In this document: positions 471 to 8,141 of the stretch, piece after piece
Position numbering within the stretch: the first letter of the stretch is position 1
Layout: each line of letters opens with the position of its first letter
NCBI RefSeq assembly: GCF_030013595.1
Contig: NZ_CP122768.1
Length of the DNA: 64,000 nucleotides
DNA from: Escherichia coli
GTDB lineage: Bacteria; Pseudomonadota; Gammaproteobacteria; Enterobacterales; Enterobacteriaceae
Direction: 5' to 3' (one strand)
Translations under genes and position numbers: made by a program
Notes under the pieces: model-generated
Database searches by the model: none
Seen by the model: the letters and a program-made list of their open reading frames with translations, nothing else
Told to the model about the DNA's origin: nothing

Positions 471-528
471 AAAAACGGCGGCAGAGCAGTCACGGAGTAA
501 AACTGATACCGCCAAACGTCACCAGAAA
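471..528 (-). ncRNA. dicF: DicF small regulatory RNA
   Basis: Reverse complement of 471..528 is UUUCUGGUGACGUUUGGCGGUAUCAGUUUUACUCCGUGACUGCUCUGCCGCCGUUUUU, matching remembered DicF; GC stem plus U-run at 3' end; located between early ORFs and dicB. Confidence 0.75.
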
Positions 529-1670: not shown

Positions 1671-2078
1671 TTATTTTATTGATTTATTTTTACGCGCTTT
1701 AAGCATTTCTTCGAAGAGTTTGTTGAAGTTTTCTACTCTTGCGCGCATTTCAGACAGCAAGGCTTCCTGCTCGGAAGATGGAAGAGCATCGAATAATTCG
1801 ATCAATTCTTTGTGGTTGGGAGTTAGCTCTGTTTCCACATGAAGTTCTTGTGCCGGCACTGGTGCCTTGTCTTCGTCACCAAACATTAGCCATGTAGGTG
1901 AGCACTTCAGAGCATCCGCTAAAGCAAACAATCGTTTTCCGACTGGCTGGGTTTCGTCTCTTTCCCATTGTGAAATTGTGACGTGAGCAACCCCAGCGAG
2001 GCGCGCAGCTTCTCGTTGTGTTAAGCGTAATTCTTTTCGTCGCGCCAGAACTCGCTGGCCTAGGGTTCTTGTATCCAT
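1671..2078 (-). CDS. dicA: Repressor DicA (HTH, XRE family, 135 aa)
   Basis: Full-length similarity to remembered DicA (..TISQWERDETQPVGKRLFALADALKCSPTWLMFGDEDK.. ..MRARVENFNKLFEEMLKARKN..); divergent from a Cro-like gene. Confidence 0.85.
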   Translation of the reverse strand: MDTRTLGQRVLARRKELRLTQREAARLAGVAHVTISQWERDETQPVGKRLFALADALKCSPTWLMFGDEDKAPVPAQELHVETELTPNHKELIELFDALPSSEQEALLSEMRARVENFNKLFEEMLKARKNKSIK

Positions 2079-2080
2079 AG

Positions 2081-2144
2081 TTAGGTAATTCTAATTTTTC
2101 TTGACTTAGGTATCCCGCGCACAATAATGTTAGAAAAGTCTAAC
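2081..2144. promoter_or_regulatory. Divergent dicA/dicC promoter-operator region
   Basis: Palindromes TTAGGTAATTCTAA (2081..2094) and GTTAGAAAAGTCTAAC (2129..2144); candidate rightward promoter TTGACT (2101..2106), 17-bp spacer, ATAATG (2124..2129). Confidence 0.55.
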
Positions 2145-2158
2145 AATAGGAGGCTTTG

Positions 2159-2386
2159 ATGCTTAAAGCTGACGCAATTACTTTTTTTGGCAGCAAAACA
2201 AAGCTTGCCAATGCCGCAGGAGTGAGACTGGCAAGTGTTGCTGCTTGGGGGATACTGGTTCCTGAAGGTCGCGCGATGCGTCTACAGGAGGCATCTGGCG
2301 GGGAGCTTCAGTATGATCCCAAAGTTTATGACGAATATCGTAAGACGAAGCGGGCGGGGCGGTTGAACAATGAAAATCACTCCTGA
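2159..2386 (+). CDS. dicC: Cro-like regulator DicC
   Basis: ATG 6 nt after AGGAGG; 75 aa (MLKADAITFFGSKTKLANAAGVRLASVAAWG...); divergent from dicA. Confidence 0.7.
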   Translation: MLKADAITFFGSKTKLANAAGVRLASVAAWGILVPEGRAMRLQEASGGELQYDPKVYDEYRKTKRAGRLNNENHS

Positions 2387-2891
2387 ACAGGCTCGTGAGG
2401 CTCTGGATGCCTGGATATGTCGACCAGGAATGACACAGGAGCAGGCGACGATATTAATCACTGAAGCATTCTGGGCTTTGAAAGAGCGCCCGAACATCGA
2501 TGTTCAGCGTGTCACAGATGAAGGTGGCGCGGTTGATCAGCGAGCGCTTGGCGTTAATCGAGTGAAGATATTCGAACGCTGGAAGGCTATCGACACTAGG
2601 GATAAGCGTGAAAAGTTCACGGCGCTAGTGCCTGCAATTATGGAGGCTATCCGGATTAATGATTTCAGGTTGTATCGTGAAATTAGTGACGGAAAAAGCA
2701 TCACGTACATGATCGCCGGGTTAAACAAAGAATATGGCGATGTGGTGGAGTCCGGACTGCTTTTTGCTGATCCTGCCGTAGTGGATCGTGAAACTGACGA
2801 ACTTATAGAAAAAGCAATTGCTTTCAAACTTGCGTATCGACTGCAATACCAACAAAAAGCTGGATGGAATTATGAGCCTTCTTTTTGCTGA
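2370..2891 (+). CDS. YdaT-like prophage regulatory protein (CII-position protein)
   Basis: 173-aa ORF directly after the cro-like gene, overlapping its stop; resembles the YdaT family from memory. Confidence 0.55.
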   Translation: MKITPEQAREALDAWICRPGMTQEQATILITEAFWALKERPNIDVQRVTDEGGAVDQRALGVNRVKIFERWKAIDTRDKREKFTALVPAIMEAIRINDFRLYREISDGKSITYMIAGLNKEYGDVVESGLLFADPAVVDRETDELIEKAIAFKLAYRLQYQQKAGWNYEPSFC

Positions 2892-3837
2892 ACGCCCACT
2901 GGTTATAAACACACAGCTTGCGATGAAGATTGGCTTAAATGAAGCCATTGTGTTGCAGCAGTTGCATTACTGGTTGAGAGATACCAATTCCGGCATGGAA
3001 TGTGATGGTGTTCGCTGGATTTACAACACAACGGAACAATGGCTGGAACAGTTCCCATTCTGGCCAGAGTCAACGTTAAAGCGCGCGTTTGCAAGTCTGA
3101 AAACGCTGGGGCTTTTGCGTTGTGAAAAGCTCAATAAATCAAAGCGCGATATGACCAATTTCTACACGATCAACTATGGGAGCGAGCTTTTAGATGGTGG
3201 CAAATTGAACGAATCCATCGGTTCAAAATGCGCCGCTCCATCAGGTCAAAATGACACGATGGAAGAGGTCAAAATGAAACGCTCCATTGGTTCAAAACGA
3301 CCCAATGTCATCGGGTCAAAATGGCCTGATGATCTTACAGAGAATACAACAGAGATTACTACAGAGAATAAAAACACTTTTCGTCCGGAAGCTTCGCAAC
3401 CGGACCCGCAGACCGCTGAACAGGATTTTTTAACCCGGAACCCCGACGCGGTTGTGTTTAGTGCGAAAAAACGCCAGTGGGGTAGCAGGGAGGATTTGGC
3501 GTGTGCGCAGTGGATTTGGGGGCGGATCGTGAACCTTTACGAACAGGCTGCCAGCGACGATGGAGAGATCATGCGACCAAAAGAGCCTAACTGGACAGCC
3601 TGGGCCAATGACGTGCGCACAATGCGGATGCTGGATGGCAGAAGCCACAGACAAATTTGCGAAATGTTTGGTCGGGTACAGCGAGATCCATTCTGGGTAA
3701 AAAACATCATGAGCCCGTCAAAACTCCGCGAAAAATGGGACGAACTGGTCATCCGCTTGGGACGTTCACCTGTACAGCGTTGTGTGAATCATATTTCTGA
3801 ACCGGATACAGAAATTCCGCCTGGTTTCAGGGGATAA
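2872..3837 (+). CDS. Replication initiation protein, lambda O-like
   Basis: Position after cro/cII-like genes; contains iteron-like DNA repeats internally (translated as repeated IGSK motifs), as in lambda O/ori; start at MSLLFAERP. Confidence 0.65.
   Translation: MSLLFAERPLVINTQLAMKIGLNEAIVLQQLHYWLRDTNSGMECDGVRWIYNTTEQWLEQFPFWPESTLKRAFASLKTLGLLRCEKLNKSKRDMTNFYTINYGSELLDGGKLNESIGSKCAAPSGQNDTMEEVKMKRSIGSKRPNVIGSKWPDDLTENTTEITTENKNTFRPEASQPDPQTAEQDFLTRNPDAVVFSAKKRQWGSREDLACAQWIWGRIVNLYEQAASDDGEIMRPKEPNWTAWANDVRTMRMLDGRSHRQICEMFGRVQRDPFWVKNIMSPSKLREKWDELVIRLGRSPVQRCVNHISEPDTEIPPGFRG
3219..3324 (+). repeat. Putative replication origin iterons (about five copies of GGTCAAAATG-like repeat)
   Basis: cGGTTCAAAATG 3219..3230, GGTCAAAATG 3244..3253 and 3267..3276, GGTTCAAAACG 3289..3299, GGGTCAAAATGG 3314..3324, inside the O-like gene. 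Confidence 0.6.
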
Positions 3838-3877: not shown

Positions 3878-4273
3878 GTGGCAAAAGTTTTTACACAGGA
3901 AGAGCGGGAAAAAATTAAAGAGCAGGTGGTCGAACTTGTGCGCCAGAGCGGTCGCGAGACATTACGACAGTTGGAAGCTAAAACAGGTGCGACAAGATAT
4001 CTGATGAGCATTCTTGCCAGAGAGCTGGTTGCCAGTGGTTATGTATACAACTCCGGCTACGGGTTATTCCCGTCTGAACAGGCACGAAAGGACTGGCAAA
4101 ATGCCCGCAAAAAACTCTCTAGGGCGAAGGTGAAGAAACCCGCTGTGGTTGATCCGGACCTTATCTGGTCACTACCTGATGGAGAAATACGTCGCTACGA
4201 CAGTCGTCTAAACATAATCTGTCGCGAGTGCCGGAAGAGCGAAGTTATGCAGCGCATATTGTCGTTTTATTAG
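3878..4273 (+). CDS. Hypothetical 131-aa protein at the position where a helicase loader (P/DnaC) would be expected
   Basis: GTG start 4 nt after TAAGGAGG; no Walker motif seen; function unknown. Confidence 0.5.
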   Translation: MAKVFTQEEREKIKEQVVELVRQSGRETLRQLEAKTGATRYLMSILARELVASGYVYNSGYGLFPSEQARKDWQNARKKLSRAKVKKPAVVDPDLIWSLPDGEIRRYDSRLNIICRECRKSEVMQRILSFY

Positions 4274-4615: not shown

Positions 4616-6103
4616 GTGGACATTAGAGACTGGCTACCAGAATTTCAAGTTTCAGCAGAAACAGATCGGGACTTACAGACCTATTTTTTTAAGCTACCGG
4701 CGATAAAGGATATTATTGAAAGTAGGGCTTGGTTGGTTCTTGGAAGAAAAGGTACTGGTAAAACAGCCATTTATGAACACCTTAGAAGAGGAAAACCAGC
4801 CAATCTCAACGGGTTTTACTCAGTATGTCTAAATTTTAGTGACTATCCATGGCCAGCCCATCAACTTTACAAGGATGCAATGGCTGGAGAACTTTCCGCT
4901 TATCAAAAAAGTTGGATGTATCTTTTTTATATTAAGGCATTATCTAAACTTATTGAAATAAAAAATGATGCTGGAGAGACTTTAAACAAAGATCTAACGT
5001 GGGCACATAATTATATCAAAACTATCTTTGGTAGTCCCGACCCAACTCTTAGGGAGGTTTTGTTTTCAAAAATAACCAGATTAAAAACCATAAAAGGGCC
5101 CAGTGCTGGTCTTAATGAAGTATCATTGGACGCAGGTGAAATTTCGTTAGAGGAAGTTGCTGAGAATGCTCAGCTAAAGCAAAAGCTAAGAGCTAATGCT
5201 TTCACATTGCTTACGTATTTTGAAAAAATTTTTAAAGATAACATTGGTAATGAAAAAATAATTATCGCCCTTGACCAATTAGACGAAAACTGGCTAGAGG
5301 GGCAAATTGAAGAATATAGTAAGGTTTTAATAAATCTGCTAAATGTCTGTAGAAACATAGCATCTGATGAACGCCTCAATGATAAATTAAAAGTCATTCC
5401 CTTCCTACGAACGGATATTTATCATTCTTTGAAATTCAATGATAAAAACAAATTATTGCAAGATAGTGCTATCATAATCTCATGGAATGAAAATAATCTA
5501 AACGATATGTATTATGAGAGGATAAAGAAATACAAACCTAATGATCTCATATTAGATGACGAAAAGGACAGATCTGGGAAAGTATTTGAGGTTTCATTCG
5601 TTAGGCAGGGGACTCCTCCATTTAAATATATATGTCGCCGTTCTTTCTTTAGGCCTAGGGATATTATTGTCTACTTCAACAAAATTAGGGCATGTCATAA
5701 AAATAATGTCTCAGGTCTTTACACTTCCAATGAGCTTTATGAAGCTGACCGTGAAGCATCTATAAGTGTGTACAATGAGGTGATTGATGAATGGTCCAAC
5801 CAATTCCCTGAAATTGAGAACTTACTAACTGTTCTTCAAACTATCCAAGTAGAAACATTCGATTTTAATGATTTCTCCGAGAAGTGCCGTAATGAATTTG
5901 CAGGTATTTCTGATGGGGTGATACGTCAATATATCAACTTCCTGTTTGATAACTCACTTATCGGACAAAAAAAACAAGGTAGATGGGAATACGTAAGTAG
6001 TTTGCCTAACTTAAAAATTAATCTACAAAATGAGTTTAGGACACATCATGCTTTAAAATACAGGTTGCATTTAATAGAAAGCAGACCGAGCCAAAATATT
6101 TAG
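4616..6103 (+). CDS. AAA+/STAND-like P-loop NTPase (495 aa), AT-rich moron; candidate defence gene
   Basis: GTG start 6 nt after AAGAGG; Walker A GRKGTGKT (4742..4765); Walker B-like IIIALDQLDE (5258..5287); AT-rich codon usage unlike flanking phage genes. Confidence 0.8.
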   Translation: MDIRDWLPEFQVSAETDRDLQTYFFKLPAIKDIIESRAWLVLGRKGTGKTAIYEHLRRGKPANLNGFYSVCLNFSDYPWPAHQLYKDAMAGELSAYQKSWMYLFYIKALSKLIEIKNDAGETLNKDLTWAHNYIKTIFGSPDPTLREVLFSKITRLKTIKGPSAGLNEVSLDAGEISLEEVAENAQLKQKLRANAFTLLTYFEKIFKDNIGNEKIIIALDQLDENWLEGQIEEYSKVLINLLNVCRNIASDERLNDKLKVIPFLRTDIYHSLKFNDKNKLLQDSAIIISWNENNLNDMYYERIKKYKPNDLILDDEKDRSGKVFEVSFVRQGTPPFKYICRRSFFRPRDIIVYFNKIRACHKNNVSGLYTSNELYEADREASISVYNEVIDEWSNQFPEIENLLTVLQTIQVETFDFNDFSEKCRNEFAGISDGVIRQYINFLFDNSLIGQKKQGRWEYVSSLPNLKINLQNEFRTHHALKYRLHLIESRPSQNI

Positions 6104-6266
6104 CTTACATCCATCTCCATTAAGAAATCTTGCTATTGTTCTTATGGATCGTCTTTCTGACTGATTTCATATTGGCGAGGTAAAGGTAGTTAAGTAGAAT
6201 GGCTGCGGGTGCTTGAGGCTATCTGCCTCGGGCATGAACACCAAAGGCAGATAGAGAAAAGCCCCA

Positions 6267-8141
6267 GTTAACATTACGCGTCCTGCAAGACGCTTAACAT
6301 TAATCTGAGGCCAATTTCATGCTAGACACATGTAGGTTAGCCTCTTACGTGCCGAAAGGCAAGGAGAAGCAGGCTAGTGTTAACACCAAGCTGTAATGTC
6401 CCCTTTGAACCATTCTAAAATGTCCCCAGACAATTCTCTGGGGGATTTTTCATGATCAAAGAGACTGTTACGATGAGTCATAAGGAACTCCACCGACTTC
6501 AGATTATTCAGGAGTCAATTAATCGACATATTACTCAGGAACAAGCTGCGGCACGCATTGGCATTTCTATTCGGCAGGTTAAACGTCTGGTGCAACGGTA
6601 TAGAAATGAAGGGCCTTCTGGTCTGGTTTCCCACCGACGTGGAAAGCGTCCTAATAATTCCTTTTCTACTGAATTCAGAGCAACAGTAATTTCACTCCTC
6701 AAAGGCCGTTACGCTGATTTTGGACCTACGTTTGCGTGCGAAAAATTGCGCGAGATACACGGTTTATCTTTATCCGTTGAAACTCTCAGAAAGTGGATGA
6801 TAGAAGAGGGGTTATGGCGTGAACGCCGTCGTAAAATTGCCCGTATATATCAACGCCGCATGCGACGACCATCTTACGGTGAACTGATCCAGATTGATGG
6901 CTCACCTCATGACTGGTTTGAAAATCGAGGCCCCAGATGTACACTGATCGTTTTCATTGATGATGCCACCAGTGCGTTGATGGCGTTGCGTTTTGTGCCT
7001 GCTGAAACAACCCGGGCTTACATGGAAACCCTCCGGGGTTACCTTAATGATCATGGCGTACCGCTCGCTCTCTACTCTGATAGACACAGTATATTCAGGG
7101 TAAATAACCCAGAGCGGGAAGGTGAGCTGACCCAGTTCACTCGTGCGATAAAGACACTGGGCATCGAGCCAATCCATGCCAACAGCCCGCAGGCAAAAGG
7201 GCGGGTAGAGCGCGCCAATCAGACACTACAGGACAGGCTGGTCAAAGAAATGCGGCTTCAGAATATCAGTGATATTGAAACAGCAAATGCATGGTTGCCG
7301 ACCTTTATTGAAGCCTATAACAACCGGTTCGCTACGTCGCCTCGTACTACTGATAATGCTCATCTTGATGAGCACCATTCTGAAGAGGAACTGGGTTATA
7401 TCTTCAGCCTACAGGCGAAGCGCGTTCTGTCTAAAAATCTCACTTTCCAGTACAAAAGCAGTGCGTTTCAGGTACGCAGTGAGGGCCGGGGATATCGACT
7501 TAGGCATTCGGTTGTTACTGTATGCGAGAACTTTGACGGTGAAATTAACGTTCTGTATGACGGGAAAGCGCTGGGCTGGGAAAAGTATGTTGATGGCCCG
7601 GAGCCTATACCACTGGATGATGAAAAGAGTGTCCATGAACGAGTGGATAATGCCCGTATTGATTTACGCTCAAAATACTATGTTAAACCTAAAGCTGACC
7701 ATCCCTGGCTTACGCGCCGAACGCAAAGTCATCAGCAAGTTAAGCCCCCGAAGTTACCTAAAAAGAAGCCTGATCCCGATAAAAAAGATTGAAACCAAGA
7801 TCGATTCGGTTGAGTGCATATCCATTCATAGGGTAGATTCTTAAGTCGCGTTTCTGGTGTTCATTTTCGGGTGGTTTGTTACTTGTTTTACCGGGGATAT
7901 GCCAGAAACGCGCTGAGTCAGTCTGGGCGGTGCGCGTAATGAGGCGTTATGGTAAATAGCCTATGCTAATGTCCGCTAAGAGCAAGAAGCGGAAGTTGGC
8001 AGTTTTGTGGACTGTCCCCACAAAAGTGACTACAGAAATAGTTGCAATTCATAATTGATCATGGGTTGTCAGTTAAACTCGTGGCGATTTAAATAGACTA
8101 ATTGGGAGTGCGTCCATTACTTATATCTTGTAATGTTAACT
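6267..8141. mobile_element. Insertion sequence (single-ORF DDE/rve transposase; IS481 or ISNCY-like); boundaries approximate
   Basis: 446-aa transposase ORF; 12-bp inverted match AGTTAACATTAC at 6267..6278 and 8130..8141 proposed as termini; no clear target-site duplication. Confidence 0.45.
6452..7792 (+). CDS. Transposase with N-terminal HTH and integrase-core (DDE) domain
   Basis: 446 aa; HTH (AARIGISIRQVKRLV) and rve-like core (..IQIDGSPHDWF.. ..LYSDRHSIF..); basic lysine-rich C-terminus. Confidence 0.85.
   Translation: MIKETVTMSHKELHRLQIIQESINRHITQEQAAARIGISIRQVKRLVQRYRNEGPSGLVSHRRGKRPNNSFSTEFRATVISLLKGRYADFGPTFACEKLREIHGLSLSVETLRKWMIEEGLWRERRRKIARIYQRRMRRPSYGELIQIDGSPHDWFENRGPRCTLIVFIDDATSALMALRFVPAETTRAYMETLRGYLNDHGVPLALYSDRHSIFRVNNPEREGELTQFTRAIKTLGIEPIHANSPQAKGRVERANQTLQDRLVKEMRLQNISDIETANAWLPTFIEAYNNRFATSPRTTDNAHLDEHHSEEELGYIFSLQAKRVLSKNLTFQYKSSAFQVRSEGRGYRLRHSVVTVCENFDGEINVLYDGKALGWEKYVDGPEPIPLDDEKSVHERVDNARIDLRSKYYVKPKADHPWLTRRTQSHQQVKPPKLPKKKPDPDKKD

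Follow-up and report, generated by a model that had tools for sequence, protein, structure and literature searches.

The 64,000-nucleotide (nt) stretch of Escherichia coli DNA analysed here, hereafter the window (contig NZ_CP122768.1 of assembly GCF_030013595.1), includes a Qin/mEp460-type lambdoid prophage, the early region of which has a lambdoid layout according to its Pfam and PHROGs matches. Within this early region lies a gene for an O-like replication initiator, and the middle of the gene holds a candidate replication origin made up of five direct repeats, an A-rich stretch and an inverted repeat. The features of the gene, with the corresponding amino acids (aa) where relevant, are the following.

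2872..3837, plus strand: intact O-like replication initiator gene, 321 aa (open reading frame (ORF) list; PHROG 391)
2872..3190, plus strand: N-terminal winged-helix domain, approximately aa 1–106, presumed to bind the iterons (AlphaFold, Foldseek)
3214..3236, plus strand: putative iteron 1, core GTTCAAAATG at 3221–3230, frame reading IGSK, weak dyad (6/11)
3237..3259, plus strand: putative iteron 2, core GGTCAAAATG at 3244–3253, reading SGQND, dyad CATCAGGTCAA-A-ATGACACGATG (8/11)
3260..3282, plus strand: putative iteron 3, core GGTCAAAATG at 3267–3276, reading EVKMK, dyad the lowest of the five (5/11)
3283..3306, plus strand: putative iteron 4, core GTTCAAAACG at 3290–3299, reading IGSK, dyad 8/11
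3307..3331, plus strand: putative iteron 5, core GGTCAAAATG at 3314–3323, reading IGSK, dyad CATCGGGTCAA-A-ATGGCCTGATG (8/11)
3310..3753, plus strand: lambda O-homologous segment, aa 147–294 (BLASTP against lambda O aa 135–270, 34% identity, E = 5e-28)
3337..3372, plus strand: A-rich stretch of three tandem 12-nt units, ACAGAGAATACA, ACAGAGATTACT and ACAGAGAATAAA (repeat finders), presumed DNA-unwinding element
3383..3405, plus strand: inverted repeat GTCCGG-N11-CCGGAC, which includes the palindrome GAAGCTTC; a tentative part of the origin
3775..3834, plus strand: C-terminal tail QRCVNHISEPDTEIPPGFRG, aa 302–321, with 14 of its 20 positions identical to the C-terminal 20 residues of E. coli DnaT; predicted to be disordered

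The start of the gene was placed at the ATG at 2872, following the annotation of phage mEp460_ev081, to the coding sequence of which the gene is 99.1% identical at the nucleotide level; the mechanical ORF begins at TTG 2818. PHROG 391 ('replication initiation O-like') matched aa 17–321 over profile positions 11–298 of 298 (E = 4.4e-92), and among the libraries tried only PHROGs names the initiator, NCBIfam assigning it no family. AlphaFold predicted a confident N-terminal fold (predicted local distance difference test, pLDDT, >93 for aa 10–105) with the order of helices and strands typical of winged-helix proteins, and when this domain was compared with the PDB using Foldseek all matches were winged-helix DNA binders, including 4pql and 5kbj (a Rep-DNA complex). 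As these matches are weak (E ≥ 0.027), the predicted structure allows no claim to a specific structural family. By tblastn the N-terminal domain is present in 139 phage records from many hosts, and a protein search with it returned mostly short unannotated fragments. A second, helical fold is predicted at approximately aa 205–295 (pLDDT 82–92 at aa 201–270, down to 64–79 by aa 300). The linker between the two folded parts is predicted to be disordered (pLDDT <52 for approximately aa 111–170 and low until aa 200), and it is exactly this low-confidence linker that encodes the repeats (approximately aa 115–153), the 12-mers and the inverted repeat. Since the linker is predicted to be disordered, its coding constraint would be weak, and the candidate origin, being encoded by the linker between the folded domains, would sit where the protein makes the fewest coding demands.

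An earlier note on this DNA had claimed that five close-set repeats lie within the coding sequence, and a pattern scan located them where it had placed them. The pattern GKTCAAAAYG matched the plus strand at 3221, 3244, 3267, 3290 and 3314 and had zero matches outside the array on either strand of the whole 64 kb. Its chance expectation in the window is 0.95, and five matches were reached in none of 100 dinucleotide-preserving shuffles. When one mismatch was permitted, the window yielded seven additional hits, all scattered singletons, with 6.5 expected by chance. Two repeat finders also recovered the array: a repeat-family search returned a single family of five copies with steps of 23, 23, 23 and 24 nt, and Tandem Repeats Finder gave a period of 23. 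Widened to 23 nt, the repeat consensus is CATCrGGTCAAAATGaCCyGATG. Copies 2, 4 and 5 show partial dyad symmetry around the central A, and copies 1 and 3 do not (background dyad score 5.25 ± 1.06, maximum 9). Copy 3 is the one that varies most among relatives. Since the 23-nt period is not a multiple of three, the five copies are spread over all three reading frames, and of the repeated IGSK motifs that had been described only those in copies 1, 4 and 5 exist, copy 2 reading SGQND and copy 3 EVKMK. As the copies lie in different frames, the conserved object is the DNA rather than the peptide. The shuffle tests, together with the conservation described below, rule out chance or functionless slippage as the source of the repeats.

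Downstream of the array, an AT-rich stretch had been placed at about 3330..3380. We found a GC content of 0.325–0.375 across 3330–3389, compared with approximately 0.48 gene-wide, and a coding strand that is 39% A; the stretch is only moderately AT-rich, and a description as three tandem 12-nt units suits it better. Among close relatives the length of this region differs only by whole ACAGAGAATACA units (12 or 24 nt), and the motif ACAGAGAnTAC recurs 3′ of the iterons in most homologues, from enterobacterial, Pseudomonas, Erwinia, Staphylococcus, Bacillus and Lactobacillus phages. In Bacillus phage BMBtp2 one CAGAGAnTAC unit sits in a shifted reading frame. This conservation of the 12-mers as DNA suggests a sequence-specific element and not merely AT-rich DNA. 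The inverted repeat that follows corresponds in position to the palindrome that flanks the lambda AT-rich region on the right, and in Lactobacillus phage mv4 a GTCCGG...CCGGAC likewise lies 3′ of the 12-mers. In the window the stem alone is weak, 24 of 300 shuffles equalling it and no single genome giving significance, but the third-codon positions over 3379–3411 are near-invariant (mean diversity 0.0045 versus 0.061 at positions 1 and 2). No RNA family was detected by Rfam within the origin region. The whole cis-acting unit would span about 3214–3411.

Codon-position diversity was computed over 60 distinct gene sequences from viral contigs that are 89–100% identical to the gene in the window; the related-locus search of viral contigs returned only relatives of at least 89% identity, a set usable for diversity and not for distant comparison. 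Third-position diversity was 0.106 in the N-terminal domain, versus 0.0145 at positions 1 and 2 (ratio 7.3), and 0.140 in the C-terminal domain, versus 0.019 (ratio 7.2). This approximately 7-fold excess at third positions in the flanking domains is the normal signature of protein selection. Across 3214–3411 the same ratio was 0.71 (Fisher p = 3e-6), with values of 1.06 for the iterons, 1.08 for the 12-mers and 0.08 for the inverted-repeat segment, and third-position diversity was 0.020 inside this unit versus 0.125 outside it (Mann-Whitney p = 2e-8). The least diverse 198-nt segment of the gene begins at 3223–3235. As diversity at positions 1 and 2 is not lowered within 3214–3411, the unit reflects constraint on DNA and not a low-diversity patch. 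The codon-position pattern indicates that selection still acts on the element as a class.

For more distant comparison, 16 genes that encode the N-terminal domain, that of the window included, were examined, lambda and SfII serving as outgroups. In 13 of these genes, short direct repeats form a cluster, well above codon-shuffled controls, right after the N-terminal domain (approximately aa 88–127). These 13 belong to the window prophage, mEp460_4F5, Klebsiella ST147-VIM1phi7.2, Providencia PSTCR8lys, Hafnia yong2, Erwinia PEp14, Klebsiella SopranoGao, Staphylococcus 96, Bacillus BMBtp2, Stenotrophomonas QH16, Lactobacillus mv4, Burkholderia BcepMigl and Vibrio SSP002; among the 16 genes, those of Pseudomonas AF and a Flavobacterium phage gave no significant cluster. 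The dominant period is 22–23 nt, or its double of 45–46 nt, in 12 of the 13 clusters and 28 nt in Vibrio SSP002, and as in the window the copies occupy different reading frames. Most arrays keep a CAAAATG-type centre in the repeat and differ in the arms, which are altered in Hafnia, PEp14, SopranoGao and Staphylococcus phage 96; the repeats of Lactobacillus mv4 and Burkholderia BcepMigl are of other sequence. The repeats compared are these.

Window prophage: GGTCAAAATG, arm GGTCA
Hafnia yong2: GGACAAAWTGTCC, arm GGACA
Erwinia PEp14: GGGCAAAWTGCCC, arm GGGCA
Staphylococcus phage 96: GGACAAAATGG
Bacillus BMBtp2: GTCAAAATGAATCAATG
Stenotrophomonas QH16: CCCTACCCAAAATGGGG

The repeat sequence tracks the N-terminal domain and not the C-terminal domain. 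Klebsiella phages have the N-terminal module and GGTCAAAATG in common with the window and carry a different C-terminal domain (Phg_2220_C). SfII has the C-terminal domain in common with the window, and since both its N-terminal domain and its repeats are unrelated, the repeats travel with the N-terminal module. At the nucleotide level, similarity to relatives that share only the N-terminal module stops at approximately 3415 and similarity to those that share only the C-terminal module starts at approximately 3368, which places the recombination junction between initiator modules just 3′ of the origin, at about 3368–3415. In Stenotrophomonas phage QH16 the C-terminal module of the homologue (1483–2349) is the DnaT DNA-binding domain PF17948 (E = 1.5e-13), and other homologues with the same N-terminal domain carry DnaB_2 or Phg_2220_C. 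As the C-terminal modules of the homologues differ, an origin-binding domain is combined with interchangeable recruitment modules. The earlier note had held that its reading would fall if homologous O-like genes lacked repeats; an array is present in the great majority of those examined and follows the N-terminal domain.

In lambdoid phages the origin combines O-binding iterons with an AT-rich tract, located centrally within O (PMC7466680). As in the lambda ori, the array in the window falls within the initiator gene, in the part that encodes the linker joining the N- and C-terminal domains, and its spacing of 23/23/23/24 nt, about two turns of the helix, resembles the 20/24/23 nt between the annotated lambda iterons. 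The alignment with lambda O begins at the last repeat of the window, such that the array occupies the position of the lambda iterons. In both cases the iteron is centred on an A-tract (TCAAAAYG in the window, TCAAAACG in lambda), the coding strand continues with an A-rich, purine-rich stretch and then an inverted repeat, and the C-terminal domains are homologous. The two systems differ in the number of iterons (five in the window, four in lambda), in their arms (GGTCA/TGACC versus TCCCTC/GAGGGA) and in the 12-nt ACAGAGAnTAC units of which the A-rich part of the window is built. They also differ in that the phage type of the window is without a P gene and its initiator has a DnaT-like tail that lambda O does not have. 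The PHROG 391 match, the homology to lambda O, the position of the iterons, the arrays of the homologues and the constraint on DNA all bear out the proposal of a lambda-like origin inside an O-like gene, and we conclude that the five repeats are very probably the initiator-binding iterons of a prophage replication origin embedded in the part of the gene that encodes a disordered linker.

While the anatomy, the conservation at the DNA level and the positional equivalence to the lambda ori are direct observations, the mechanism we propose follows by analogy. Rightward transcription from a pR-like promoter would lead to synthesis of the O-like protein; the transcript would cross the cro-like gene, the cII/YdaT-like gene and the O-like gene together with the origin. 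The winged-helix domain, probably as dimers, would then bind the 23-bp-spaced, partly dyad sites, and the resulting nucleoprotein complex would strain the neighbouring A-rich 12-mers until they open. Finally, the lambda-O-like C-terminal domain, perhaps aided by the DnaT-like tail, would recruit the host helicase machinery.

Several observations weigh against this reading. The N-terminal domain is of a different family from that of lambda O: no Pfam family matched the initiator at E ≤ 0.01, and PF04492 (Phage_rep_O), to which lambda O scores 123 bits, is absent from it. Of the five iterons, just copies 2, 4 and 5 show clear dyad symmetry. At 60% AT the A-rich stretch is milder than the 64% of its lambda counterpart (70 nt). 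Predicted DNA curvature, computed with a wedge model, rises only modestly over the array, with a mean of 20.7 degrees versus 14.1 ± 7.5 regionally; the array maximum reaches the 98th percentile, and the regional maximum is higher and lies elsewhere. With the same model, lambda as a control gave a clear maximum on its iterons, at 46 degrees. The predicted curvature, which the earlier note had proposed as a check, is therefore only mildly positive and non-diagnostic, and weighs little either way. An insertion sequence (IS) and an inserted ATPase gene lie approximately 0.8–4 kb downstream, and this copy of the prophage may be non-inducible. Origin function itself we infer from position, conservation and analogy.

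Among other explanations, the one that survives best is that the array binds a protein for another purpose, serving in autoregulation, copy control or exclusion/incompatibility or as sites for a host protein, while the true origin is located elsewhere. Sequence alone cannot tell a site that binds an initiator from one that fires replication, and in iteron plasmids the same repeats also act in copy control. Against this explanation, the window contains the full lambda-type set of iterons, A-rich repeats and inverted repeat in the right order and orientation, and the constrained block continues beyond the repeats through the A-rich and palindromic parts. Furthermore, there is no second cluster of the motif within the 64 kb, and the early region showed no alternative array, DnaA-box-like or otherwise. 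Given this complete, ordered set and the absence of another cluster, we consider a binding array with a separate origin less likely, and indeed improbable.

The remaining early region and its downstream neighbours bear on a further explanation, and comprise the following.

476–527, minus strand: DicF antisense RNA (Rfam RF00039, 72.5 bits)
1671–2078, minus strand: DicA-type repressor (Pfam/PHROGs)
2101..2128, plus strand: pR-like promoter TTGACT-16-AATAAT upstream of the cro-like gene (consensus scan only)
2156–2386, plus strand: Cro/DicC-like gene (Pfam/PHROGs)
2370–2891, plus strand: cII/YdaT-like gene (Pfam/PHROGs)
3878–4273, 3′ of the O-like gene: DUF977/Ren-like gene (Pfam/PHROGs)
4616–6103, plus strand: Sll1717-family P-loop ATPase, 495 aa (NCBIfam, 250 bits; no Pfam match)
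6207–6373, plus strand: sok antitoxin RNA (Rfam RF01794, 111 bits)
6452–7792, plus strand: transposase-like ORF, 446 aa, directly after the sok RNA

As DicF occurs together with a DicA/DicC-type repressor pair, the prophage is Qin-like. The transposase-like ORF is probably an IS element inserted beside a hok/sok module. The Sll1717-family ATPase gene, possibly defence cargo, is flanked by the Ren-like gene on one side and the hok/sok-IS region on the other, and in mEp460_ev081 this slot holds another gene. The closest genome matches of the locus are E. coli chromosomes; of 5426 complete genomes, 4625 show a match to some portion of the 2.8-kb early region and 523 to at least 80% of its length.

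In light of this setting, the origin could be one by descent only, silent in a defective prophage of this genome. The IS and the inserted ATPase gene closely downstream point in this direction, as do DicF and the DicA/DicC-type immunity region, which mark the prophage as Qin-like, since the related Qin prophage of K-12 is cryptic. The early genes argue otherwise: the initiator gene has an intact ORF, which matches that of mEp460_ev081 at 99% identity, the repressor, cro-like and cII-like genes and the pR-like promoter are intact, and the ORF listing shows a downstream run of large ORFs spaced like a lambdoid late/structural region. For the parental phage mEp460, completion of the lytic as well as the lysogenic cycle has been reported (bioRxiv 10.1101/2022.06.30.498228), and conservation over the 60 relatives amounts to ongoing selection on the element as a class. 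We regard a silent relic as slightly more improbable still than a binding array, and it concerns activity in one strain and not the identity of the element.

Finally, the repeats could be the shadow of a peptide, with the linker carrying repeated IGSK as an interaction or modification motif. Three of the five copies do encode IGSK, and another linker motif, TE(I/N)TTE, is kept as a peptide in many homologues. The linker is however predicted to be disordered, the 23-nt period places the copies in three frames, the amino-acid-changing positions of the array vary as much as its third positions when the flanks differ 7-fold, and the CAGAGAnTAC unit of BMBtp2 is out of frame. The frame and codon-position results largely refute this explanation, which we consider highly implausible.

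The O genes of the Shiga toxin phages 933W and P27 contain six iterons, and iteron number differs among lambdoid relatives (PMC7466680). As in the window, their origin is of the lambdoid kind and located centrally in O; their O proteins are full-length relatives of lambda O that work with P, whereas the window gene shares the C-terminal domain only. The O genes of the SfII/SfIV/mEp460_4F5 type, annotated as 'O protein family' or 'primosomal protein', share with the window gene the C-terminal domain (approximately 73% nucleotide identity), a ...PAGFRG tail, a repeat array in the linker and no downstream P gene. The in-frame repeats of SfII are its own (GAYCCGTCA), and its N-terminal domain is, as noted, unrelated.

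RepA_N plasmid initiators, such as staphylococcal RepA (4pql, 5kbj), likewise have an iteron-binding winged-helix N-terminal domain and are among the top structural matches of the window protein. In RepA_N plasmids of Gram-positive bacteria the origin sits mid-gene within rep. As a structural match this is weak (E approximately 0.03–0.07, TM score 0.5–0.56 on the target), no relationship to the window protein was detected at the sequence level, and these are plasmid and not phage replicons. The rep gene of Lactococcus phage TP901-1 ('replication protein, experimental') also contains a mid-gene cluster of repeats, reportedly essential for replication, with a 15-nt period and a different repeat sequence; as a homologue it was rejected (best BLASTP E = 2.2).

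The lambda layout includes a partner loader, which is missing here. No P-like, DnaC-like or DnaB-like gene follows the initiator in this prophage, nor in mEp460, SfII or the Klebsiella relatives; the next gene is the DUF977/Ren-like gene, followed by the Sll1717-type ATPase. The likeness of the initiator to K-12 DnaT is limited to the tail, since BLASTP aligns aa 302–321 only. Some phage records label the gene DnaT (primosomal protein I), and this label was rejected: the NCBIfam DnaT family gives 16.3 bits against a cut-off of 201, over the last 20 residues only, and a full-length family match fails. Three further PHROGs match the initiator solely or chiefly at the tail, and a ...P(A/P)GFR(G/S) ending is also found on related initiators with different C-terminal domains. 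DnaT lacking residues 154–179 has roughly half its affinity for single-stranded DNA (PMC4132743), and none of the DnaT literature searched states a binding partner for the last 20 residues. The literature searched contained nothing linking a DnaT tail to phage O-like initiators, nor anything on this origin family; matches to 'Replication protein O' in DnaT papers were text-matching artefacts. As a hypothesis only, the tail might stand in for P, linking the initiator to the host primosome. If true, this would explain the absence of a P gene in these lambdoid phages.

More tentatively, and with doubt outweighing confidence, we may be looking at a deeply conserved origin design, tied to a winged-helix domain that Pfam does not cover and spread over phages of Proteobacteria and Firmicutes; no description of such a design was found in the literature searched. 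It may consist of iterons with a period of mostly 22–23 nt, in which a CAAAATG-type centre is fixed and the arms vary, of ACAGAGAnTAC 12-mers and of a hairpin, fused to interchangeable helicase-recruiting modules. The 12-mers would perhaps act as a sequence-specific unwinding or single-strand-binding element, and, in the enterobacterial branch, the copied DnaT tail (...IPPGFRG) might plug the initiator directly into the host primosome or DnaB-DnaC.

The probable origin described here follows the classic layout of lambda within an initiator family that has been studied less, a real but ordinary finding that would not surprise a specialist in phage replication. It locates where a very common type of E. 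coli prophage very probably starts its replication, in a gene that matching genome records label only 'hypothetical' or 'helix-turn-helix protein', and it provides a clean example of a cis-acting DNA element that is hidden in coding sequence and detectable by codon-position statistics alone. The cross-phylum 12-mers and the DnaT tail on phage initiators without a loader bear on how helicase is recruited without a P-type protein.

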